Made by a program: the position numbers and the translations under genes. Source: Escherichia phage Greed. Taken from it: a stretch of DNA of 60,042 nucleotides. The first letter of the stretch is position 1. Each line of letters opens with the position of its first letter. The notes beneath the pieces were generated by a model. That model saw only the letters and a list, made by a program, of their open reading frames with translations, was not told where the DNA came from and searched no databases. Of this stretch, positions 5,070 through 60,042 are shown piece by piece. The DNA is taken from the sequence record KX534337. The stretch is one strand, 5' to 3'.

Positions 5070-5144
5070 TCACAGAATGTACATAAACCAGAAATAACCA
5101 GCTACAAAAATAGCACCCGCAAATAATTTTAAAAGCTCGAACAT
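5070..5144 (-). CDS. Possible 24-aa hydrophobic micro-protein
   Basis: ATG at 5144..5142 preceded by GGAGGG; encodes MFELLKLFAGAIFVAGYFWFMYIL, a single predicted transmembrane helix; stop lies 6 nt before the next start. Confidence 0.25.
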   Translation of the reverse strand: MFELLKLFAGAIFVAGYFWFMYIL

Positions 5145-5243
5145 TGTTCCCTCCGTTAACTTTATGCTGTAAGTATAGCAGGACTTGAGATGTATGCAAC
5201 AACTTTAGACTTGAAATGCATCTATAAAATAGCACGATTTGCC

Positions 5244-5272
5244 TTTACATCTGATCAGTCTAACTGTACTAT
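5244..5272 (+). promoter_or_regulatory. Putative promoter (TTTACA, 17 bp, TACTAT) with GATC in spacer
   Basis: -35 TTTACA, 17-bp spacer containing GATCAGTCT, -10 TACTAT, about 30 nt upstream of the 5303 start. Confidence 0.35.
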
Positions 5273-14683: not shown

Positions 14684-15076
14684 ATGCTATTAGTCGTCAC
14701 CGGAGGTCGAGATTTTAAGCATGTGGAGTATATTTATGCTCAATTGGATAAGCTGCATATGCAAAGAAGGATAACCACACTACGCCACGGTGACGCTGAC
14801 GGTGTTGACCGCATTTGCGCACAGTGGGCAGAGCGCAACGGTATTAAGACAGAAGCGTTCCCTGCCCCGTGGGACAATCTTTCCTTACCAAATACCAAGA
14901 TACGGTATAATGCCAAAGGTGCTTATAATGCACAAGCAGGCGCTTACCGCAATCAATTAATGCTGGATACCGATCCTAAACCGGATCACGCTATTGTGTT
15001 TCCTGGCGGAGCTGGTACTATGGATATGTACAGACGGATTAAAGCATCCGGTATTCCTTACACTTTAGCGGAGTAA
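14684..15076 (+). CDS. SLOG/DprA-like Rossmann-fold protein (DUF2493-like)
   Basis: 130 aa; VVTGGRDF...HGDADGVDRICAQWA...FPGGAGTMD matches the glycine-rich nucleotide-binding pattern of SLOG-type proteins; motif-level call only. Confidence 0.4.
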   Translation: MLLVVTGGRDFKHVEYIYAQLDKLHMQRRITTLRHGDADGVDRICAQWAERNGIKTEAFPAPWDNLSLPNTKIRYNAKGAYNAQAGAYRNQLMLDTDPKPDHAIVFPGGAGTMDMYRRIKASGIPYTLAE

Positions 15077-16239: not shown

Positions 16240-16425
16240 ATGACCAAACTATACGCCGGATTGTTTTTATTTGCGACGTTGATGTTCGCTGGGCTTTATA
16301 CCTATACAGTAGTCGAACAACCTTCCACGGTTATCCGAATCTTTGCAAGTACAGGGCTTTGCATCTGTCTTATTCTATTTGTTTTATGCATTGTTATTAT
16401 CCAAGACCAAAGGAAAGTTAAATGA
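16240..16425 (+). CDS. Small membrane protein (61 aa)
   Basis: Two hydrophobic helices; RBS AGAGGGG embedded in an inverted repeat. Confidence 0.4.
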   Translation: MTKLYAGLFLFATLMFAGLYTYTVVEQPSTVIRIFASTGLCICLILFVLCIVIIQDQRKVK

Positions 16426-16886
16426 CCACAATTGCGTTTGATGGAAAAGTATTAGCTGCGGACCGTGGCGTTATGCGCGGGGAAGCTGTGACTGCTTATA
16501 AGAAAGTTCATAGCGTGAATGGACATCGTGGACGGTTTTTACTGGGCTTGTGCGGTTTGACAGCATTTACCGATCAGGTGTTGCGTTATTTTAATAGCGC
16601 GGAACCTGTTAAGTTCCCTGATATTAAACTTTACAGCAAAGATGATGATTACGGGCAAACTTGCGGTCTTGCTGTCACTCCGGAAGGTACTTGCCATTTT
16701 ATTTATAATGATGGTACTTTGAGCGAACCCATGCTGGATGGATGGGGATCTGAGGGTAGCGGTTGTGTGTTTGCTGCTGGCGCGTTAGCTGCTGGTGCAA
16801 GTGCGAGCGAAGCTATTGAGTTGGCAATTAAACACACCACATGCGCATTCCTGGGAGTTGATACAATATCATTTGAGGGTTTTTAA
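16422..16886 (+). CDS. HslV/proteasome-beta-like Ntn-hydrolase peptidase (putative)
   Basis: Begins MTTIAFDGK (Thr exposed after Met removal, as in HslV MTTIVSV); KKV, GLCGLTA and GSEGSGCVFAAGALAAG parallel HslV GFAGGTA and IGSGGPYAQAAARAL. Confidence 0.45.
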   Translation: MTTIAFDGKVLAADRGVMRGEAVTAYKKVHSVNGHRGRFLLGLCGLTAFTDQVLRYFNSAEPVKFPDIKLYSKDDDYGQTCGLAVTPEGTCHFIYNDGTLSEPMLDGWGSEGSGCVFAAGALAAGASASEAIELAIKHTTCAFLGVDTISFEGF

Positions 16887-17147
16887 ATGACTACATTCAG
16901 TCACCTGATCCCACCTGCTTATCATAGTAAGGTAGTTGACCACGGGACGCATGTTGTAATTGGTGGCGAAATCTTTATCACAGATAACGAGGAAATCGCC
17001 ATTGCAATTATTGACAGCACTCAGCATGACTTTATGGTTATCCTGCAACACGAACCAGATAACTTCACTTTTTACTCCAGCTACGGGGTCGATAAAGGTG
17101 GAAAAAGCCTTGTTAGCTGGTACATTAGTGAGTGGTTTGACGGGTAA
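16887..17147 (+). CDS. Hypothetical protein (86 aa)
   Basis: ORF starting 1 nt after the upstream stop. Confidence 0.4.
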   Translation: MTTFSHLIPPAYHSKVVDHGTHVVIGGEIFITDNEEIAIAIIDSTQHDFMVILQHEPDNFTFYSSYGVDKGGKSLVSWYISEWFDG

Positions 17148-17229
17148 TCTCCTTAGATCAATTCTCCTTGCGCCGTATCAAGTTTCTCTGTTACCCTTGA
17201 GTGGTTCATGTCAAGCGGAGGAACTCGAT

Positions 17230-17667
17230 ATGGCACTTCAACCTCGTGGTATTCGTAATAACAATCCAGGCAATATTCGCTGGGGTGATAATTGGCAGGG
17301 CTTAGTTCCTGCTGATAAGCGAACCGATAAATCTTTTGCTCAATTCACGCAACCGATTTACGGCATTCGTGCGCTAGCGAAAATCCTGACAAACTACACC
17401 AAACGTGAAGGCTTGCCCAATGTAGGTAAGAAAAACATCGACACTGTACGTGAAATTATCGCTCGCTGGGCACCGCCTAACGAAAACGATACGGAAGCGT
17501 ATATTCGCTCTGTTGCTAAAGCAATTGGTGTTCAACCTAACGATCCAATTAATGTCTTCGACAAGGCAATTATGTCAGGATTGGTGAAAGCAATCATTCG
17601 TCATGAAAATGGCATGATGCCCTATACCGACGACGTAATTAACCGCGCTATTGCAATGGTACTTTAA
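17230..17667 (+). CDS. Hypothetical protein with NNPGNIR motif (candidate endolysin by position; track ORF starts at 16960)
   Basis: ATG at 17230 has a GGAGG RBS; lies immediately upstream of the holin; function not recognisable from sequence. Confidence 0.45.
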   Translation: MALQPRGIRNNNPGNIRWGDNWQGLVPADKRTDKSFAQFTQPIYGIRALAKILTNYTKREGLPNVGKKNIDTVREIIARWAPPNENDTEAYIRSVAKAIGVQPNDPINVFDKAIMSGLVKAIIRHENGMMPYTDDVINRAIAMVL

Positions 17668-17672
17668 CTGAC

Positions 17673-17693
17673 GGGGCGTTAGCCCCTTTTATT
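17673..17693 (+). terminator. Putative rho-independent terminator
   Basis: GGGGC/GCCCC stem with GTTA loop followed by TTTTATTT. Confidence 0.45.
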
Positions 17694-17703
17694 TGGAGGG
17701 AAC

Positions 17704-18048
17704 ATGTTCAATTCACCCAACGAACATTGGGCAGTTCTAGCGGGGTTTGCGTTTATCTCCCTCATTGGGGGAGCTCTCGGTTATGTCATGCGTACAATAG
17801 ACGCTGGTAAGAAAGTACGGGCAAGCATTGCGTTTCTTGAAGGCTTATCCGCCGCTTTCTTTGGCGTTATAATGTATGCGATCTACAGGGAGTTTAACAT
17901 CAGCCTTTGGTTCGCTTTTGGCCTTGCTGGCCTATTTGCTTGGGCAGGTTCACGTGCTACGCTAAAAGCCCTAACGTCGCTTATAGCTTCACGGACAGGG
18001 ATCAAACTCGATTCAGGGGACTGCAAACATGAAAACGATTCTAAATAA
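17704..18048 (+). CDS. Holin
   Basis: 114 aa with three hydrophobic helices and a charged C-terminus, directly upstream of the spanin pair. Confidence 0.6.
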   Translation: MFNSPNEHWAVLAGFAFISLIGGALGYVMRTIDAGKKVRASIAFLEGLSAAFFGVIMYAIYREFNISLWFAFGLAGLFAWAGSRATLKALTSLIASRTGIKLDSGDCKHENDSK

Positions 18049-18505
18049 CTTCTTCAGTTTTATAAAAACTAAACCGCGTCTGTTTATCGAGTATTTGATG
18101 ATCGGCGCGGTTGTGTTTTTATGCGGGGTGGCTGCATACTTGTGGTCACAGAACGAGCTTAGCAAAACTAATTTAAATCATGCTGAGCAAAGACTAACCG
18201 TTGTAGAACGGGACAATGCAAAGCTGGGCGAAGCTGTTGTATTTCTTGCATCCCAACGGGAGAAGGATACTGAATCCTATCGAAAATTGGCTTCAGCAAT
18301 TGAAAGTGAGCAACATAACCACAGGTTGCTTCAGGACAAATTAAAAGCACTGGAGAAAAGCAATGCCGACGTCAAAGCTTATCTTAATGAGCGTGTTCCT
18401 GATGATTTGCGCAGGCTGCTCGACGGAGATACAACCTCCACCACCGCCGCAGATAGTGAAGATAAAACTTCCGGCCCATCTGTTGGTAGAATGTCGGGAA
18501 GTTGA
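18029..18505 (+). CDS. Inner-membrane spanin (Rz-like)
   Basis: N-terminal transmembrane helix followed by a long charged, coiled-coil-like periplasmic region; the o-spanin overlaps in another frame. Confidence 0.6.
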   Translation: MKTILNNFFSFIKTKPRLFIEYLMIGAVVFLCGVAAYLWSQNELSKTNLNHAEQRLTVVERDNAKLGEAVVFLASQREKDTESYRKLASAIESEQHNHRLLQDKLKALEKSNADVKAYLNERVPDDLRRLLDGDTTSTTAADSEDKTSGPSVGRMSGS

Positions 18506-18668
18506 TAAATATCCTTTGGTTTATACAAGGGACATTATCCAACGTTTGCAGGATACAGAAACAGCTCTGACTGAATGTAAACTGAGGGTTAAGGAAATCA
18601 TACGCTATGAAGCTGAAAATGTTTCGCTTGATTTTGTAGGATCAAGCAATTATATTCAGCCTAAATAG
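18363..18668 (+). CDS. Outer-membrane lipoprotein spanin (Rz1-like), overlapping the i-spanin in another frame
   Basis: Signal peptide with lipobox-like ICAGCS followed by a PPPPP run, as in lambda Rz1; overlapped arrangement with the Rz-like gene. Confidence 0.55.
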   Translation: MPTSKLILMSVFLMICAGCSTEIQPPPPPQIVKIKLPAHLLVECREVDKYPLVYTRDIIQRLQDTETALTECKLRVKEIIRYEAENVSLDFVGSSNYIQPK

Positions 18669-49208: not shown

Positions 49209-49769
49209 TTACAGGCTATAGTTCACGTGGCATTTCGAAGTTTCTTCGATGGTGCATTCTACAAGTTGAACACCATGTTCGTCAAGCAGTTGCGGACCAA
49301 TTACGTTTACCATGTATGCAGCCAGGTTTTCCGCGGTTGGGTTAAACGGTAAAGATACCAGTGAATCGTTAAAGGCTTTAAGATCTTCATCCCCTTCACC
49401 GAAAGTAGGCCAACCGCGTTCAGTTTGACTATCTGTGCGAATACAACATTGCAGCCCATTAATCAGCATATCCTGATCCCAATGCAGGAACTTATGATCC
49501 CAGTTGTCTTCCAACCATTGACAGAGCGTAGTTTTAACCACACTAAAGTCGATAACTCGCCCAACACTGTCCAGCTTAGCGCGCTCTTTTACTTCGACGT
49601 TAACAAGACCTCTGCCCATTTCAATTGGTACTTCTTTAACTGTTTCTTTCGGCGCAACTTTAAAGTGAAACTTATAGTTGTGACCGTGAAGGTGTCGACA
49701 CTTGCTTTCATGACCAACGACACGGTGACCTGCACAAATTTCATGTGAACGAATTACTGTATAACTCAT
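49209..49769 (-). CDS. queD: 6-carboxy-5,6,7,8-tetrahydropterin synthase (QueD-like)
   Basis: N-terminal CAGHRVVGHESKCRHLHGHNYKF matches the QueD/PTPS CxxxHGH zinc site; 186 aa with a C-terminal extension. Confidence 0.7.
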   Translation of the reverse strand: MSYTVIRSHEICAGHRVVGHESKCRHLHGHNYKFHFKVAPKETVKEVPIEMGRGLVNVEVKERAKLDSVGRVIDFSVVKTTLCQWLEDNWDHKFLHWDQDMLINGLQCCIRTDSQTERGWPTFGEGDEDLKAFNDSLVSLPFNPTAENLAAYMVNVIGPQLLDEHGVQLVECTIEETSKCHVNYSL

Positions 49770-50323
49770 TTTAATACCTCTTTAGACTGTTCAATTTCTA
49801 ACGCACGTTGCGCCGACGCAATAATGTCTTTCAAATCTTCTACCAGATTCTTATGACCGCGTTCGCCCGGCTGCAACGCCTTTTTAATCAAATGTTGTAA
49901 AGCTGGGTTAGTTGTCTTCCAAGCTTCCAAGACATCATAGACGTCCACGATGCATTTTACAACATTCCCGTTTTGATCTTTACCATAAATAACTTTCTGA
50001 TATTTATTCATGGGAATTTTAGATGGTTCGTATTTCGTAAAAATTGCGGTTTTATCAATTCTCCAGTCGGGCAAATTTGCTTCAATAGATTGTTTGACGT
50101 AATCATCCGCAACAATATATCTCCAGGCTATGATATCTTGAACTTTATAAGGGCTATTCTCATCCATAGCCGAACGCCCTTCTATAGCCCAATCCCATCC
50201 ATGTAATAGATTCTTAACGTGTGTGCCGTTGCGCAAACGAACTTCAAACTTCTCATTACGAAGAAAAATAGGCATTCCTTTACCGTCGTGTTGGTGCCAA
50301 ATTTTATTCAAATTATCTTTCAT
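49766..50323 (-). CDS. Hypothetical protein (185 aa) inside the deazaguanine cluster
   Basis: ATG at 50323 directly follows the upstream stop; no motif recognised. Confidence 0.45.
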   Translation of the reverse strand: MKDNLNKIWHQHDGKGMPIFLRNEKFEVRLRNGTHVKNLLHGWDWAIEGRSAMDENSPYKVQDIIAWRYIVADDYVKQSIEANLPDWRIDKTAIFTKYEPSKIPMNKYQKVIYGKDQNGNVVKCIVDVYDVLEAWKTTNPALQHLIKKALQPGERGHKNLVEDLKDIIASAQRALEIEQSKEVLK

Positions 50324-50325
50324 TT

Positions 50326-50832
50326 TTACGCTCTCGCTGTACGTGAATGAACTTCGTAAACAATCCAAAGGATAGCGGACGCTGTGAACTTACTTAAGCT
50401 CATTGCTACCATAGATCCTGGATTAACAATACCTATAATACTTAAGAACACAATGGAGTCAATCGGTACAGCTACCAAAGAGCTAATAAATACACGTTGA
50501 TGAAACGGCTTCTTAGTAATCGTGTATACCGCATAGTCCGCAAACTCGCTAAGAGCAAAGGATGCAACGGATGCAACTACAACAGCAGGATCCCCAAATA
50601 CCCAGCTAAGGATGCAACCCACAATCATTGCAGGGATGACGCCTTTGCCAGCGTTACGCTGTGCGTAATCACGCAGAACAAAGATAATACCTACAAAGAA
50701 AGCCATCATGGGGACTACGCCAAGTGGCGTATTAAGCATTGGAAGGTAGGAAAAGCCCAGGTTTACGAATGTAATTGCAGCCAGATAAGCAACGATAAAT
50801 TTCATACTTTTGTTCTCCAGTTTTAACAGCAC
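50326..50832 (-). CDS. Integral membrane protein, possible queuosine-precursor (YhhQ-type) transporter
   Basis: 168 aa with about five hydrophobic helices; FVLRDYAQRNAG loop; located between queC and queD. Confidence 0.4.
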   Translation of the reverse strand: MLLKLENKSMKFIVAYLAAITFVNLGFSYLPMLNTPLGVVPMMAFFVGIIFVLRDYAQRNAGKGVIPAMIVGCILSWVFGDPAVVVASVASFALSEFADYAVYTITKKPFHQRVFISSLVAVPIDSIVFLSIIGIVNPGSMVAMSLSKFTASAILWIVYEVHSRTARA

Positions 50833-50925
50833 TATTCGCTGGTTGTTGGGTTTAAAAGCTTTAGTAGTATAGTTGGGTTACCGCACCCTAAACAATGCGC
50901 TAGCGGTGCGGTTTTCGCGGTAAGA

Positions 50926-51633
50926 TCAAGCTTTGCTAATAAATTCGCTGTACCCTTTAGCACGCAGTTTGCACGCTGGACATTCCCCGCAACCGTATCC
51001 CCAGTCATGCAGAGTACGACGGACACCATTATAGCACGTATGGGACTGCTCAATTACTGTGGTTAAGAAACCAACCTTATCCGCCAGCTCAAACGTTTCT
51101 GCTTTATTTAAACGCATAAGCGGAGTAACAAAATGGATATCTGTTTCATATCCAACGTTTAAGGTAGCTTCAAGCAAATCTACAAACTGCTGGCGGCAAT
51201 CCGGATAACCGCTATAGTCCGTTTCACAAACGCCTGTAACCACATAGCGAGCTCCAACCTTCTGCGCGTAGGCGTGCGCGGTAGTCAGGAAAAGAGCATT
51301 ACGGTTTGGCACAAAGCTTGCCGGAAGGTTGTTGTGCTGTTCGTGATGTTCGTTAACATCACCTTCGTTCCCGATTAAAGCACTATTGCCGATCTGTTTC
51401 AAAGCAGGTAATTCAAAGACAACAAACGGGACATTGTGCTCTTTACAAATTTGATTAGCACAAGCCAGCTCAATGTTATGACGTTGACCGTATGCAAAAC
51501 CGATAGCGTAAACTTTGTCATAGTTATTAAGTGCAAGACCCAAACAGGTCACGCTGTCCTGGCCGCCAGACAGGACGACAACGGCGGAGTTATGATTTTT
51601 TACAGGGAATACCAGTTTATCTAATTTATTCAT
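50926..51633 (-). CDS. queC: 7-cyano-7-deazaguanine synthase
   Basis: 235 aa; PP-loop VVLSGGQDS; VTGVCETDYSGYPDC; C-terminal zinc cluster CYNG...CGECPACKLR; close parallel to E. coli QueC throughout. Confidence 0.9.
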   Translation of the reverse strand: MNKLDKLVFPVKNHNSAVVVLSGGQDSVTCLGLALNNYDKVYAIGFAYGQRHNIELACANQICKEHNVPFVVFELPALKQIGNSALIGNEGDVNEHHEQHNNLPASFVPNRNALFLTTAHAYAQKVGARYVVTGVCETDYSGYPDCRQQFVDLLEATLNVGYETDIHFVTPLMRLNKAETFELADKVGFLTTVIEQSHTCYNGVRRTLHDWGYGCGECPACKLRAKGYSEFISKA

Positions 51634-51634
51634 T

Positions 51635-51823
51635 TTAGAAACCTTTAAGGCTAATATTAAGGTTAATGACTACTTGTTCAACTACAGCTTCAGAGGTTAC
51701 CTGACGCTGGTGTATCTCAAGCTCCGTATGTATTTTCTTGGATGCAGCACGACAAATAGCGTCATTCAACTCGTCTTGTAAACGTTGAATTTTCTGCATA
51801 AGGATTACAGTTTCTTCATTCAT
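51635..51823 (-). CDS. Hypothetical protein (62 aa), tandem paralog of 51816..52028
   Basis: Shares the pattern EL-E/D...HxEL-E/D-I...VxIN...I-K/S-G with the adjacent upstream gene. Confidence 0.4.
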   Translation of the reverse strand: MNEETVILMQKIQRLQDELNDAICRAASKKIHTELEIHQRQVTSEAVVEQVVINLNISLKGF

Positions 51824-52028
51824 TTACTTCACCTTTAATATTACAAGGGTTAATTGTTACGTTAGACATTACAATTGGATGATTGCGTGCTCCAATTGTA
51901 CTAACGTGATTAATATCTAATTCTACATGCACGCCCTGCATAGTAGCGTGAGCAATTGAAGAATTAAGTTTTTCTACCAGCTCAGTGATCATTTCCTGAT
52001 GCTGTTTCGCTTCTTCCAAAGTGATCAT
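51816..52028 (-). CDS. Hypothetical protein (70 aa), tandem paralog of 51635..51823
   Basis: See 51635..51823; the two genes overlap by 8 nt. Confidence 0.4.
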   Translation of the reverse strand: MITLEEAKQHQEMITELVEKLNSSIAHATMQGVHVELDINHVSTIGARNHPIVMSNVTINPCNIKGEVNE

Positions 52029-52281
52029 TTCTTTTCACCTTCACTAATGTTTGTTTATAATCCATACCTTCAAGGTCAACTTCTGCCATTTCACAAAAGT
52101 TATCATCTTCCCAGTATGATGTCCATTTAGTTTCACTGTCCATCAACGTTGGCTCATACTCGAATCCGTAAACTGTACCGTCTTGATCCGTAGCCAGCCA
52201 CCGTACCCATTCAGGGACATCAAGCTTATTACCAAAGTATTCAACTTCTTTAGTATGCACAACCTGACTTAACACACGCAT
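51982..52281 (-). CDS. Hypothetical protein (99 aa), paralog of 13633..13935
   Basis: Shares PEW...DxDG...EVDLEGMD...TL with the plus-strand gene at 13633. Confidence 0.45.
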   Translation of the reverse strand: MRVLSQVVHTKEVEYFGNKLDVPEWVRWLATDQDGTVYGFEYEPTLMDSETKWTSYWEDDNFCEMAEVDLEGMDYKQTLVKVKRNDHFGRSETASGNDH

Positions 52282-52988
52282 TATTCCACCCCGATATATT
52301 TGTGAACCTGAAGCTGCAACGTGTAACCGTGTTTCATACAGCTTTGGACAACGGCTTGGATATTGCTGTGGTTAAGGTCTTCATCCTGCTCGTCCATTGG
52401 CTGTAAATATATCTTACCCTTGAAACCCTTCGGAGGTCTAGCGATAAATGGCGTAGCCTGATGATCTAATGCTTGAAGAGGTAAACCATCTTCCACGTTT
52501 ACACAGCACGCTTTAAGTACATATTTAAATGCATTAGCGCGGTGCAGCACAGAAGGATGAATCTTTGAGGTCTTGGGACTACATACAATTACAGGTAACT
52601 GGGAAAAGTTCTTAGGTAAAGGCATAGACCCATTAGTTTCAATTTGCACCAAATAGCCGCGCGATAACAGTTGTTCAATAAACGGGTTAATTTGCTGACG
52701 GAACGGTTCACCCCCAGTGATAACCACAAGTGAGGTGCTATTGCCTGATTCCAGCTTACGGCTTTCGATTAAACGCATAATATCGACAATATGATAAAGA
52801 CTACGACCAACAGTATAATCGGTATCACAGCCAGGGCATTGCAGATTACACCCAGCAAGACGCACAAATACAGCAGGTTGGCCGCAGAATGGACCTTCAC
52901 CCTGAATGGTAGAGAATACCGAATGCACGTCTAAATACATATCGTTTTCTTTAGAACGGGACTCGGGAGCTTGTTGATTAATATTCAT
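52281..52988 (-). CDS. queE: 7-carboxy-7-deazaguanine synthase (radical SAM)
   Basis: 235 aa; TIQGEGPFCGQPAVFVRLAGCNLQCPGCDTDY contains the radical-SAM Cx3Cx2C-type cluster and QueE-like N-terminus. Confidence 0.8.
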   Translation of the reverse strand: MNINQQAPESRSKENDMYLDVHSVFSTIQGEGPFCGQPAVFVRLAGCNLQCPGCDTDYTVGRSLYHIVDIMRLIESRKLESGNSTSLVVITGGEPFRQQINPFIEQLLSRGYLVQIETNGSMPLPKNFSQLPVIVCSPKTSKIHPSVLHRANAFKYVLKACCVNVEDGLPLQALDHQATPFIARPPKGFKGKIYLQPMDEQDEDLNHSNIQAVVQSCMKHGYTLQLQVHKYIGVE

Positions 52989-53057
52989 CTTAAATCCTCT
53001 AGTGAAAAAGAAAGCGCCTCATTGGGCGCTTTCATTATAACGTGATATGTTTTGATA

Positions 53058-56540: not shown

Positions 56541-57445
56541 TCTTTCCCGTAATAATTAGCTACTTGATAGTTTTGACAACCAACTTTCTGTCCTTGCGTA
56601 TCCACTGCGACGGAATGGAAATTGCAATACCATGTTCCATCTTCTTTAGGTTCAAGGAATTGGCATGTGCGGCAGTTTACTTCCGGCATAGTTTTACGCC
56701 AGCATAGTGAGGAGTGATCGCACCATTTACATTCGAAGAAAGTGGAATCTTTAAATGCGCGGTCCGGAATATTTGTAGCAATAGCAATCTGCACACCACG
56801 ATCAATATACATGTCCGCGGTAACAGGATCAAACGGAATAATTTCTGCGTAAACTTCATCGTCATTCTTGTTTACAGCAAGATATAACGCTGCGCCAAGA
56901 CCTAGTTTTCGCATGTACACGTTCATCTGTACATAGTGCTCAGGTTTAGCTTCTTTGACACCTTTAGCTTTCAGCTTTTTAAAAGACTTATCGTTATGAG
57001 TCTTCATTTCGGTAAGCACAGGCATCCCAGGCTGCACGTCCGGACAACCTATAACCACACCATCGCAGGAACCGCCAAAGTGTCCGCCAGCTTCGCTGAT
57101 ACGGAACTGGTGTCCATTTTCGTCCTGCTGGTAAACCTGCATACCTGCCGCAAGCAGCATAGCAATGAAACGGGCTTCTTCCAGATGTCCGCGGTTAAAC
57201 AGTCGAAGCTGGCGCCCGTCAAACTCTTTGCGTGTAGCCCAGCGATATCCATAGAAAAGCTTGCGTGCGCATTGCTGCCCAATAAGGGAAGCGCCTAAGT
57301 GACTGCGGTTACCGCTTTCAGGGCGATAAGCGTCTTCAATTGTGGGAATGACTACGCCAAGATACTTACGGTAAGTCCCACCCTGATCTTTTTGCACACC
57401 GTCATTGATCGCTTGAAGTGTTTTTTCTGCAATATAAATAGCCAT
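56537..57445 (-). CDS. PD-(D/E)xK exonuclease (RecB/Cas4-like) with C-terminal Cys cluster
   Basis: 302 aa; GGSCDGVVIG...LTEMKTH (D/E-x-K core), EHYVQMNVYM (QhxxY-like), C-terminal Cys-rich region. Confidence 0.5.
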   Translation of the reverse strand: MAIYIAEKTLQAINDGVQKDQGGTYRKYLGVVIPTIEDAYRPESGNRSHLGASLIGQQCARKLFYGYRWATRKEFDGRQLRLFNRGHLEEARFIAMLLAAGMQVYQQDENGHQFRISEAGGHFGGSCDGVVIGCPDVQPGMPVLTEMKTHNDKSFKKLKAKGVKEAKPEHYVQMNVYMRKLGLGAALYLAVNKNDDEVYAEIIPFDPVTADMYIDRGVQIAIATNIPDRAFKDSTFFECKWCDHSSLCWRKTMPEVNCRTCQFLEPKEDGTWYCNFHSVAVDTQGQKVGCQNYQVANYYGKD

Positions 57446-57510
57446 TGGAATACCTTAGAAAAATAAGCCGTCTTTCGACGGCTTATGGACACTACAGAGG
57501 GAGGGTTATT

Positions 57511-58344
57511 TTACTGCTGCCACGGCGGGACTGCTGCTTGTGCCGGATGCGGTTCAGCTTGCTGCTGCGGCTGAGCTTGCTGCTGAGGTGCTGCTGCCTG
57601 GCCCGGCTGTGCTACCTGCTGCGCCCACGGCTGCTGTGGTGCTGCGTTTTGAGCAGGATTATCCCACGGTTGCGGTGCGGCATTCTGCCACGGTTGTGCT
57701 GCTGCGCCCTGCTGTGGTGCTGGTTGCTGCTGCACAGGCTGCTGAACTGGCTGCTGTTGCTGCACCGGAGCTTGCTGCTGTACAGGCGCTTGCTGTTGCT
57801 GAGCAAACGGGTTAGCTGCTGGTTGCTGTGGTGCTGCGCCCGGGAAAGCTGGCTGCTGAGCTGGCGCACCTGCACCGAACGGGTTAGCTACTGCCGCTTG
57901 AGCACCCATTGCTGGAGCACCTGCTTCTTTTTCTGCATACTTAACCGGATCGTTGATGTTAGCATAACCGTTAGGCTCGTTGCTGTCTTCATAACCTTCC
58001 TGAGAACGAACTTTCAGACGCAGGTTCAGCGGAATGTTATGCAGTTGAGCAGGAGTATCCCAGCGGATTACGCCAACCGCATGGGAAAGCGCGCCCAGTT
58101 GTTCGTATGCGATACGCACAGTATCTTCGTTGTCGTTGATAACGTTGTAACGAGCAAAGATTTTACGACCTTTAGCAAAACCATCAATGATGCTAAACGT
58201 TACCTGGATCGCCATACCGCCATTTTTGGTCGGTTTAAATTCAGATGCTTCAATTACTGCTTTATACCAACCTTTCGGCAATGCGCCGTAAGAAGGTGCT
58301 TGATAGCTGCTCGCGTCAAAGTGGAAATTAGTTGGCATAGTCAT
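57511..58344 (-). CDS. Putative single-stranded DNA-binding protein with Gln/Pro/Ala-rich C-terminal tail
   Basis: 277 aa; N-terminal 130 aa globular; C-terminal about 140 aa low-complexity Q/P/A repeats; sits in the recombination module. Confidence 0.45.
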   Translation of the reverse strand: MTMPTNFHFDASSYQAPSYGALPKGWYKAVIEASEFKPTKNGGMAIQVTFSIIDGFAKGRKIFARYNVINDNEDTVRIAYEQLGALSHAVGVIRWDTPAQLHNIPLNLRLKVRSQEGYEDSNEPNGYANINDPVKYAEKEAGAPAMGAQAAVANPFGAGAPAQQPAFPGAAPQQPAANPFAQQQQAPVQQQAPVQQQQPVQQPVQQQPAPQQGAAAQPWQNAAPQPWDNPAQNAAPQQPWAQQVAQPGQAAAPQQQAQPQQQAEPHPAQAAVPPWQQ

Positions 58345-59072
58345 TAGTTAATACCTTTCATTTTGTTGATAACAGAACCTAAGTGTGGGACTTCAACCGC
58401 ATCTAAACGTCCCGAACGATCCTTAGCGATTGTATTAAAGTCCGGTTGAGTTTGCAAGTAACGATATGAGTTACCTTGCTGATCCTTATTTACATTCAGA
58501 CGAAATACTTCGTCGAAGAAATAAGGGAGCATTTGTCCCAATTTGGACCCAGGCATAGATGGAGCATACGCGGTAACACCGGAGACTTCATCTTTGTCTT
58601 TGCCCATTTTAGCAGACATATAAACATGTTTGCCAGGAATATCGCGAAATTTACGGATCAGATCTTGCATCTTTTCAAGCAAAGTACCATAAGCTTGACG
58701 AGGATCTTTCGTTCCCTTTTTCGCGTTGTTTAAACATTGTTCAGCAATTTCGCTCAAGCTGTCAAGCGCAATAGAATCGAAATACTGCTGGTTAGCTGGA
58801 GTTACGCACCACTGATAAGCCGCTTCAACGTCTTCCAGACATTTCACTTCAATTACCGGAATATCGTAAACGATGGGCAAACCCATGTTACCATAAACAC
58901 GGTTAAGGTTTTCCGCTGCAATAGACAACAGACCGGATTCTGCGCTGATTAAAATTGGTTTAGGTAGTGTGGCTACAAGGCTGGTTTTACCCATACCTGC
59001 TTCACCGTAAACCAGAATTTTAACACCTGTGTCCTGCACAACTTGTGAAGACATTTTAATTTCAATGGCCAT
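58344..59072 (-). CDS. RecA-fold ATPase (Sak4-like recombination/annealing protein)
   Basis: 242 aa; Walker A VYGEAGMGKTSL; size and neighbourhood (SSB-like, nuclease) typical of phage Sak4-type ATPases. Confidence 0.5.
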   Translation of the reverse strand: MAIEIKMSSQVVQDTGVKILVYGEAGMGKTSLVATLPKPILISAESGLLSIAAENLNRVYGNMGLPIVYDIPVIEVKCLEDVEAAYQWCVTPANQQYFDSIALDSLSEIAEQCLNNAKKGTKDPRQAYGTLLEKMQDLIRKFRDIPGKHVYMSAKMGKDKDEVSGVTAYAPSMPGSKLGQMLPYFFDEVFRLNVNKDQQGNSYRYLQTQPDFNTIAKDRSGRLDAVEVPHLGSVINKMKGIN

Positions 59073-59137: not shown

Positions 59138-60042
59138 TTAATCTAAAGCCTGATCACTTTCATCGCGGAAATGCATAAAGTTTGCAAAACGCGGTTTATC
59201 TTTCACGCCATGAGGGAAGTGTTTATATGAAATAGTCCGACCTTTAATTTTGTCAGGGTTATTCCAATAATAAATCTTATCCTCTTGCGTTAGTTTACCA
59301 GGACTAACGTTGATTGTATTGCCCGTCTTAACGTCTTTACAAACCAACGTCCCGATCATACCGTTAGGAACTTTATTTTCCTGATGTGAAGATCGTGTAG
59401 TCCTTCCCAGCTCGTTAACAGTAGCTTCATTAAGATTAGTTTCACCCTCAATAATATCAAGGACAATAGCATCTTCCTGAATAAAGCGTTTAATACGAAG
59501 ATATCCACCTTCACGAACTGTGCCGCGCCCATGTTTATAAGGCTTGTCAGGATCACGGATAATAATACCTTCATAACCCATATCAAGCCAGATGTTTTCC
59601 CAGTAGAGCAACTCTTCTAAAGACTTAACCACATACATTGGCACAACTTGCAGGTCGAGCAATTCACCTTTCGCGTGCTGTGTGGTTATAAAATCTTTCA
59701 TCATGTTGTAGCGGGCTTCATAGCCCAGCTCTGCAACGCTCTCAGCGCACAGATCAAAGATGTGCCATTTCAGGAACGGTTCACCTTCAATTGTGTTTAC
59801 CGCACTGGTTGTTTTACGACACAGGTCTGGATCTGTTTCCACCCCTGCCGCAAGCTCACCGTCATAGCCCATGTATTGAGAACCGCTGAAAATTGCGCTG
59901 GTATGGCGGTTTTTAAACAGCTTTAAGCTTCGCCCTACTATCTGCCCGTCCGGATTTAAACCGCGTACACCGTCGATTTTAGGCAGTATACAGCACGGAA
60001 ACTTAATCTTTTCTTCAACCGCGTCAGTCGCTAAATGTGGTT
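59138..60042 (-). CDS. ATP-dependent DNA ligase, C-terminal part (5' end is at 1..137)
   Basis: Frame open from 59138 to the window end; YEGIIIRDPDKPYKHGR and GYLRIKRF resemble ligase motifs IV and V; the N-terminus with KIDGVRG is in the duplicated segment. Confidence 0.65.
   Translation of the reverse strand, partial: PHLATDAVEEKIKFPCCILPKIDGVRGLNPDGQIVGRSLKLFKNRHTSAIFSGSQYMGYDGELAAGVETDPDLCRKTTSAVNTIEGEPFLKWHIFDLCAESVAELGYEARYNMMKDFITTQHAKGELLDLQVVPMYVVKSLEELLYWENIWLDMGYEGIIIRDPDKPYKHGRGTVREGGYLRIKRFIQEDAIVLDIIEGETNLNEATVNELGRTTRSSHQENKVPNGMIGTLVCKDVKTGNTINVSPGKLTQEDKIYYWNNPDKIKGRTISYKHFPHGVKDKPRFANFMHFRDESDQALD
59916..60042. repeat. 127-bp terminal redundancy (identical to 1..127)
   Basis: Exact sequence identity between 1..127 and 59916..60042, read by eye. 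Confidence 0.9.

Follow-up and report, generated by a model that had tools for sequence, protein, structure and literature searches.

A stand-alone Enc34-type catalytic domain is very probably the endolysin of Escherichia phage Greed

Introduction

The characterised relatives of the protein studied here are two phage endolysins, ORF39 of Hafnia phage Enc34 (PDB 7Q47) and M4Lys of Salmonella phage BSPM4. The catalytic domain of Enc34 ORF39 (NCBI CDD PHA02564) lyses outer-membrane-permeabilised cells of E. coli, P. aeruginosa and Hafnia, and this lytic activity was shown with the protein lacking its C-terminus (PMC8943055). The fold of the domain, which has GH73 and GH23 as relatives, is a diverged, permuted lysozyme alpha-lobe, and its conserved catalytic signature consists of Glu131, Tyr95 and Trp79 (Cernooka et al. 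2022, PMC8943055). In general, domains of the PHA02564/Enc34 type are all-helical and represent highly diverged, GH73/GH23-like relatives of the lysozyme alpha-lobe. M4Lys degrades purified peptidoglycan when its transmembrane domain (TMD) is removed (Bai et al. 2020, PMC7143992). The M4Lys data hinted at both glucosaminidase and endopeptidase products (PMC8943055), and bond specificity is unsettled even among the characterised members.

The authors who in 2014 described phage 9g, the founding phage of the subfamily Queuovirinae, were unable to find all of its lysis module, and their suspicion was "an unusual lysis mechanism". Pantoea phage Vid5 carries a 7-deazaguanine gene cluster and produces derivatives of 7-deazaguanine; in its gene list, the Phage_holin_3_3 holin (ORF98) is immediately preceded by a DUF3380 endolysin (ORF97). 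This DUF3380 endolysin looks like a non-orthologous replacement, which supports the slot before the holin gene as that of the endolysin.

An earlier note on the DNA analyzed here, a stretch of 60,042 nucleotides from Escherichia phage Greed (hereafter the window), stated that the lysis cassette lacks a recognisable endolysin. This is the same puzzle that the 9g authors had met, and it is resolved by later work. In this study, we carried out a computational analysis of the gene immediately upstream of the holin gene, together with its neighbourhood and the rest of the genome.

Results

The window and its lysis genes

Bases 1-127 of the window are 100% identical to bases 59916-60042, an overlap left by the assembler when a contig closes into a circle; the window is therefore a complete circular genome of about 59,915 bp. 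It represents a Seuratvirus genome, whose relatives, such as GottfriedDienst, are placed in the genus Seuratvirus of the subfamily Queuovirinae, and the 2.9-kb lysis region is 99.4% identical to Escherichia phage vB_Eco_SLUR25. The features discussed below are collected in Table 1.

The holin shows three hydrophobic stretches in its hydropathy profile (about residues 9-27, 41-59 and 65-83) and has a charged C-terminus. The i-spanin, annotated as such in GottfriedDienst, contains a transmembrane helix at the N-terminus followed by a coiled-coil region; it also matches TIGR03495 LysB at 1.4e-8, which lies under the curated cut-off of that model. Additional matches of the o-spanin are phrog_456 (3.5e-14) and NF038368 P2_Rz1 (7.9e-6). 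Read in a different frame, the o-spanin gene opens inside the i-spanin gene and ends beyond the i-spanin stop, corresponding to the P2-type "overlapped" arrangement. These Pfam, PHROG and NCBIfam matches, which span 17704..18668, bear out the earlier statement that a holin and an overlapping spanin pair are clear. The small and large terminase genes come after the spanin genes, and the structural modules start downstream of terminase. The 145-aa gene in question is located between small non-structural genes and the holin gene.

Several side observations were made in this neighbourhood. The o-spanin ORF encodes 101 aa, with a lipobox region near residue 19. In GottfriedDienst, the o-spanin (5084-5269 of the locus examined) is annotated from an internal position equivalent to 18483 of the window and comprises only 61 aa; such a product would be devoid of the lipoprotein signal, and the public record is probably mis-annotated. 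Just upstream of the lysis genes, also on the plus strand, are an HslV-family peptidase homologue (16422-16886; phrog_1040, 5e-32) and a YspA/SLOG-domain protein (14684-15076; Pfam YAcAr, 2e-18).

Table 1. Features of the lysis region and of the 7-deazaguanine gene cluster in the window
Feature	Position	Strand	Basis or remark
Shine-Dalgarno GGAGGA of the endolysin gene	17217..17222	+	7 nt before ATG; sequence reading
Endolysin gene (very probable)	17230..17667	+	ATG 17230, stop ends 17667; 145 aa
Trp80 codon (Enc34 Trp79, substrate-positioning aromatic)	17467..17469	+	7q47 alignment; role per PMC8943055
Tyr91 codon (Enc34 Tyr95)	17500..17502	+	alignments; role per PMC8943055
Glu126 codon (Enc34 catalytic Glu131)	17605..17607	+	7q47 alignment; role per PMC8943055
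Terminator-like hairpin GGGGC-GTTA-GCCCC + TTTTATTT	17673..17694	+	pattern scan; stem-loop 17673-17686
Shine-Dalgarno GGAGGG of the holin gene	17695..17700	+	sequence reading
Holin, 114 aa	17704..18048	+	Pfam PF16083 Phage_holin_3_3 4.8e-10; phrog_785 8e-25
i-spanin (Rz/LysB-like)	18029..18505	+	phrog_5975 2.9e-61; phrog_89 Rz-like spanin 7.4e-11
o-spanin (Rz1/LysC-like lipoprotein)	18363..18668	+	Pfam PF23793 LysC 4.7e-12, residues 14-85
GTP cyclohydrolase I	48566..49207	-	7-deazaguanine cluster
PTPS/QueD	49209..49769	-	7-deazaguanine cluster
Vut_1-like putative preQ transporter	50326..50832	-	7-deazaguanine cluster
QueC	50926..51633	-	7-deazaguanine cluster
Radical-SAM QueE-like gene	52281..52988	-	7-deazaguanine cluster

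The gene preceding the holin gene and its product

The range 17230-17703 comprises one gene and a 36-nt spacer, 17703 being the base directly before the holin ATG. The gene with the NNPGNIR motif that had been pointed out in this place is a real ORF with its own ATG and Shine-Dalgarno sequence (Table 1). Its product is a soluble, basic protein (16.3 kDa, pI 9.8) that starts with MALQPRGIRNNNPGNIRWGDNW and carries RGIRNNNPGNIRWGDNW; the motif RNNNPGNIRWGDNW corresponds to residues 9-22. A longer ORF of 235 aa, which opens at TTG 16960, was considered a mechanical artefact, because nearly all homologues are 135-150 aa long and share the MxxQPRG start. A comparable extension is found in the public record of Dru_SM1, whose "endolysin" (214 aa) consists of the identical protein plus approximately 69 spurious N-terminal residues derived from an upstream start; these extra residues overlap the preceding gene.

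The 145-aa protein represents the catalytic domain alone (PHA02564/Enc34-type) and has neither a transmembrane nor a signal segment. Its N-terminus, MALQPRGIRNNN, is hydrophilic with no hydrophobic stretch, and the highest Kyte-Doolittle mean over 19 residues is 0.92. The protein stops 19 residues past the HENG motif, with no C-terminal extension. Two membrane-associated architectures were examined and rejected: a SAR or signal-anchored endolysin, since the hydrophobic segment is absent, and a C-terminal TMD in the style of Enc34 and M4Lys, which is rejected by alignment with the wider family, where M4Lys runs about 90 residues further.

Family membership and active site

No family was found for the 145-aa protein in Pfam-A at E<=0.1 or in NCBIfam at E<=0.01, and among the classical Pfam endolysins (GH24/GH19/GH25/GH108, SLT, Amidase_2/3, Peptidase_M15/M23, CHAP/NlpC and DUF3380) there was no match. 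By contrast, the PHROG profile phrog_873 "endolysin" matches the protein at 4.7e-63, and a phmmer search against PDB sequences aligns its residues 5-130 with the Enc34 endolysin's catalytic domain (7q47_A, E=7.1e-34); the N-terminus of the 1295-aa, virion-size 9vvp Gp29 was also matched (1.3e-22). The protein looked unrecognisable because Pfam and NCBIfam have no model for its family, and their silence is a gap in both libraries rather than evidence against an enzymatic function. The all-helical fold of 7Q47, which resembles the lysozyme alpha-lobe and has no beta-lobe, is predicted for the 145-aa protein.

Two alignments were used to examine conservation, one of 44 close homologues (A1) and one of the wider family including M4Lys, JBD69 gp25, CR8 gp16, NO16 GP11, Enc34 and 9vvp Gp29 (A3). 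Glu126 falls in the sequence IIRHENG, which is aligned with the IIRHENG motif of 7q47. Both Glu126 and Tyr91 are invariant in A1 and A3. Trp80 is conserved in at least 90% of the sequences in A1; in A3, its position is always occupied by an aromatic residue, with a single change (Trp to Phe) in NO16 GP11, and the Glu/Tyr/Trp triad is complete in M4Lys, JBD69 gp25, CR8 gp16 and 9vvp Gp29. The protein also contains the N-terminal motif RGIRNNNPGNI, in which none of the 44 close homologues departs from R6, G7, R9, N10, N12, P13, G14, N15 and I16. In A3, R6-N12, N15 and I16 are invariant, and P13 and G14 each vary once.

Judged by its sequence, the 145-aa protein is a clear member of the PHA02564 / Enc34-ORF39 / M4Lys endolysin family, and we are highly confident that 17230..17667 encodes the endolysin of this phage, in the form of a stand-alone catalytic domain of that family. 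The gene is a new copy of a known family, characterised both experimentally and structurally, in a simple stand-alone architecture, and the lysis cassette is complete and ordinary. With regard to the earlier note, the suggestion that the positional candidate may be an unusual muralytic enzyme agrees well with the assignment to a putative lysozyme-like enzyme of a non-classical, PHA02564/Enc34-type family. Its remark that the protein matches no endolysin family holds for Pfam-A and NCBIfam and fails for PHROGs (phrog_873) and the PDB (7q47). Accordingly, the cassette does contain a recognisable endolysin of the Enc34 type once profile and structure searches, the check that the note had proposed, are applied; both of them identify a lysozyme-like family. 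A search of the accessible literature yielded no experiment with this protein or with a stand-alone homologue from Queuovirinae, the endolysins of Seuratvirus and Nonagvirus included.

Proposed role in lysis

Based on these comparisons, we infer the muralytic activity of the 145-aa protein, its holin dependence and bond specificity, and the co-transcription of its gene with the other lysis genes, as follows. The gene and those of the holin and spanins, which lie just upstream of the terminase genes, would be transcribed jointly at a late stage, and the 16-kDa basic protein, having no signal, SAR or TMD segment, would build up in folded form in the cytoplasm. As the C-terminal TMD is absent, it is expected to behave like a classical cytoplasmic endolysin that depends on a holin: the holin with its three TMDs would trigger and perforate the inner membrane, whereby the endolysin would gain access to the murein. 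Glu126 would then serve as the general acid in cutting the glycan backbone, with Tyr91 and Trp80 positioning the substrate, and the i-/o-spanin pair would finally break the outer membrane.

By analogy with M4Lys and GH73, the enzyme would most likely be an endo-beta-N-acetylglucosaminidase. An endolysin with another chemistry, either a GH23-like lytic transglycosylase or muramidase, or a dual glycosidase/endopeptidase, is the most probable of the alternatives; we regard such a different chemistry as possible but rather unlikely.

The hairpin between the endolysin and holin genes

The terminator by which the gene had been said to be separated from the holin gene exists as a hairpin; a functional separation is not supported. 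The hairpin is located between the endolysin stop codon and the holin ribosome-binding site, and its stem of 5 bp is made up of G and C only. If it were an efficient intrinsic terminator (17673-17694), one transcription unit would end with the endolysin gene, and the holin and spanin genes would form a separate, independently regulated unit, which we consider improbable. The terminator pattern is indeed fitted by this stem and the T-rich tail behind it, and the stem is kept among Seuratvirus relatives: the hairpin is identical in GottfriedDienst, and Cronobacter phage CSP1 retains the stem even with a changed loop. However, with so short a stem the fold does not stand out, the 56-nt hairpin context having a predicted RNA folding energy of -16.3 kcal/mol with a z of -1.8 versus shuffles. 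Terminator-like sites are not enriched in the region either (5 in 2.5 kb versus 2.2 +/- 1.4 in shuffles). The distance from the endolysin stop to the holin ATG is just 36 nt, holin ribosome-binding site included, and the scan listed no promoter-like site from the hairpin to the holin ATG, the nearest ones on the plus strand being at 17011-17038 and 18628-18656.

Comparison with relatives points in the same direction. The hairpin is absent from Nonagvirus HdSG1 and Klebsiella phage vB_Kpn2-P2 and is conserved only within the genus; the Nonagvirus relatives have the same gene order, and in HdSG1 and vB_Kpn2-P2 the spacer between the endolysin and holin genes measures 13 nt, compared with 36 nt and a hairpin in the window. 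Moreover, the annotated holin ORF of CSP1 passes through the hairpin. Considering the short stem, the unexceptional fold, the lack of a promoter-like site and the hairpin-less Nonagvirus, the hairpin was judged unlikely to be a true operon boundary. It is no argument against the membership of the endolysin gene in the cassette, and it is probably a leaky terminator, or else an element that stabilises the mRNA 3' end or causes attenuation.

In CSP1 (1772-2149 of the locus examined), an in-frame ATG has arisen by a C-to-T substitution immediately 5' of the hairpin, and the holin has been annotated from this codon; the corresponding frame is closed by a TAG at 17680 in the window. From the sequence of CSP1, an N-terminally extended holin, possibly a dual-start or antiholin form, is conceivable in that phage.

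Distribution of the domain and its use in virions

Of 50,697 phage records, 791 contain the domain, as do 4,568 clusters in a large protein database, and it occurs in several architectures. Stand-alone forms of 138-145 aa adjoin holin and/or spanin genes, just before terminase; this stand-alone form near lysis genes was observed in four lineages, namely Seuratvirus, Nonagvirus (HdSG1), Klebsiella vB_Kpn2-P2 and Pseudomonas Casadabanvirus (JBD69). Chivirus and Enc34 combine the domain with a C-terminal transmembrane domain, and the internal virion protein gp16 of some T7-like phages has it as its N-terminal part. It is also present within PHROGs of tail-injection, tape-measure and head proteins.

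This distribution bears on the possibility that the 145-aa protein is a packaged, virion-associated peptidoglycan hydrolase that opens the wall locally while DNA is injected, rather than the enzyme of lysis, which we regard as very improbable. The gp16 protein of the T7-like phage CR8 has been detected by mass spectrometry, GP11 of the tailless phage NO16, which the structural atlas of that phage treats along with its virion proteins, contains the domain, and the 1295-aa 9vvp Gp29 has it as well. In addition, homologues go under legacy labels, among them "capsid protein", "putative virion protein" and "structural protein P5". Nevertheless, the window protein is a free protein of 145 aa with no attachment domain and no fusion to a large structural protein, and its gene is not part of the head and tail modules but directly precedes the genes for holin and spanins. 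The same stand-alone form adjoins holin or spanin genes in all four lineages. If it were a virion enzyme, the genome would be left with no endolysin, given that the Pfam scan described below detected no other muralytic domain. The "virion protein" label itself comes from the provisional CDD name of PHA02564 and not from an experiment. Virion proteomics of a Seuratvirus was not found in the literature, and the 9g paper does not mention mass spectrometry. Thus, the proposal of the earlier note that the gene might encode a virion protein finds nothing in its favour for this stand-alone gene; it echoes the legacy label ("V virion protein" / "structural protein P5") and the virion use of the domain in other phages.

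Search for another endolysin in the genome

To cover the remainder of the genome, the translations of 98 ORFs that do not overlap and have 45 aa or more were concatenated into 20 pseudo-proteins and searched against Pfam at E<=1e-3, with E-values being slightly inflated for such concatenated queries. Domains of head and tail, replication and 7-deazaguanine synthesis were found, as expected. No further muralytic domain (lysozyme, transglycosylase/SLT, amidase or peptidase) was detected among these 98 ORFs, a set that omits ORFs below 45 aa, overlap-filtered ORFs (e.g. 16887..17147) and one possible short ORF spanning the junction. A tblastn search of the window with the 145-aa protein returned the protein itself only, with no second copy, for instance in tail proteins. 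A canonical endolysin elsewhere, the finding that the note had named as speaking against its candidate, did not appear in these searches.

That the true endolysin is some other gene of the genome and the 145-aa protein an accessory or non-lytic factor, in favour of which one can cite just the non-recognition by Pfam/NCBIfam and the presence of several other ORFs that also have no annotation, is extremely improbable in view of the scan of this complete circular genome and of the match to a crystallised, active endolysin (E=7e-34) with intact active-site residues.

The scan also provided several observations outside the lysis region. A 7-deazaguanine (queuosine/archaeosine-type) DNA-modification gene cluster, the hallmark of Queuovirinae, occupies approximately 47300-53000 on the minus strand (Table 1). 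A 679-aa ORF at 44206-46245 on the minus strand, located amid the minus-strand replication and DNA-modification genes, has no Pfam match at E<=1e-3 and may encode a divergent DNA polymerase. A 300-aa ORF at 57445-58347 on the plus strand, opposite to its neighbours, is of low complexity and rich in Leu, Cys and Arg; it is probably spurious, resulting from greedy ORF picking, and the real gene may be on the minus strand.

Discussion

The practical value of this assignment lies in annotation. There is no Pfam or NCBIfam model for the family, and many homologue records are misleadingly named. The identical protein is labelled "(putative) endolysin" in VogelGryff, SHIN8 and Dru_SM1, and the names of identical or nearly identical proteins are inconsistent, some records (the RefSeq record of slur01 among them) giving "endolysin" and others "capsid protein", "virion protein" or "V: structural protein P5". 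For discovery, the value is small: the family has been known to be muralytic since 2020 (M4Lys), its structure since 2022 (Enc34), and identical proteins are already called "endolysin" in GenBank. As a small, soluble, naturally TMD-free Enc34-type domain, the protein may be a scaffold for enzybiotic engineering, as already done with the truncated Enc34 domain.

There is a slim chance that the TMD-less Queuovirinae form differs from this ordinary picture, by an unexpected bond specificity, by being packaged into the virion and used in both entry and exit, or by the hairpin acting as an attenuator. An unexpected specificity might be, for example, a dual glycosidase/endopeptidase activity as hinted at for M4Lys, and an attenuating hairpin would result in a high ratio of endolysin to holin, helping to time lysis.

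Compared with the described systems, the endolysin of the window resembles the membrane-tethered enzymes in its catalytic part and differs from them in architecture. Enc34 ORF39 has a C-terminal TMD, whereas the window protein ends right after the catalytic domain, and the gene order is endolysin-holin-spanins in the window versus holin-endolysin-spanins in Enc34. The catalytic domain of M4Lys (Chivirus) shows 51% identity to the window protein in A3; M4Lys, however, is a protein of 237 aa with a C-terminal TMD and, when over-expressed, lyses E. coli without holin or Sec (PMC7143992). As the window protein has no TMD of the M4Lys type, holin-independent lysis is not expected for it, and the C-terminal one- or two-helix TMD that defines the tethered architecture of Enc34 and M4Lys is not found in it.

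The stand-alone homologues of Nonagvirus (9g, HdSG1), Kpn2-P2 and JBD69 (gp25) are of the same kind, with 138-145 aa and 56-67% identity in A3. Differences among them concern the surroundings: in addition to the spacers described above, the endolysin and holin genes abut in JBD69, and the position of the spanin gene varies among the stand-alone relatives. The gp16 of some T7-like phages (CR8, Kayfunavirus), NO16 GP11 and 9vvp Gp29 share this catalytic domain, and its Glu/Tyr/aromatic signature is conserved in them (A3); there, the domain is fused to, or serves as, a particle component at entry, whereas in the window it is a free protein of the lysis cassette. The GH73 enzymes (T. maritima TM0633/FlgJ, 4QDN; C. 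difficile Ecd09610, 8YXK) have no detectable sequence similarity to the window protein. Relative to GH73, the helix order is permuted and the beta-lobe is absent, and the protein is no GH73 member by any sequence criterion. In its lysis logic, finally, the cassette would correspond to the lambda R type: the protein has no signal peptide, SAR or transmembrane segment, and a multi-TMD holin and a spanin pair are encoded next to it.
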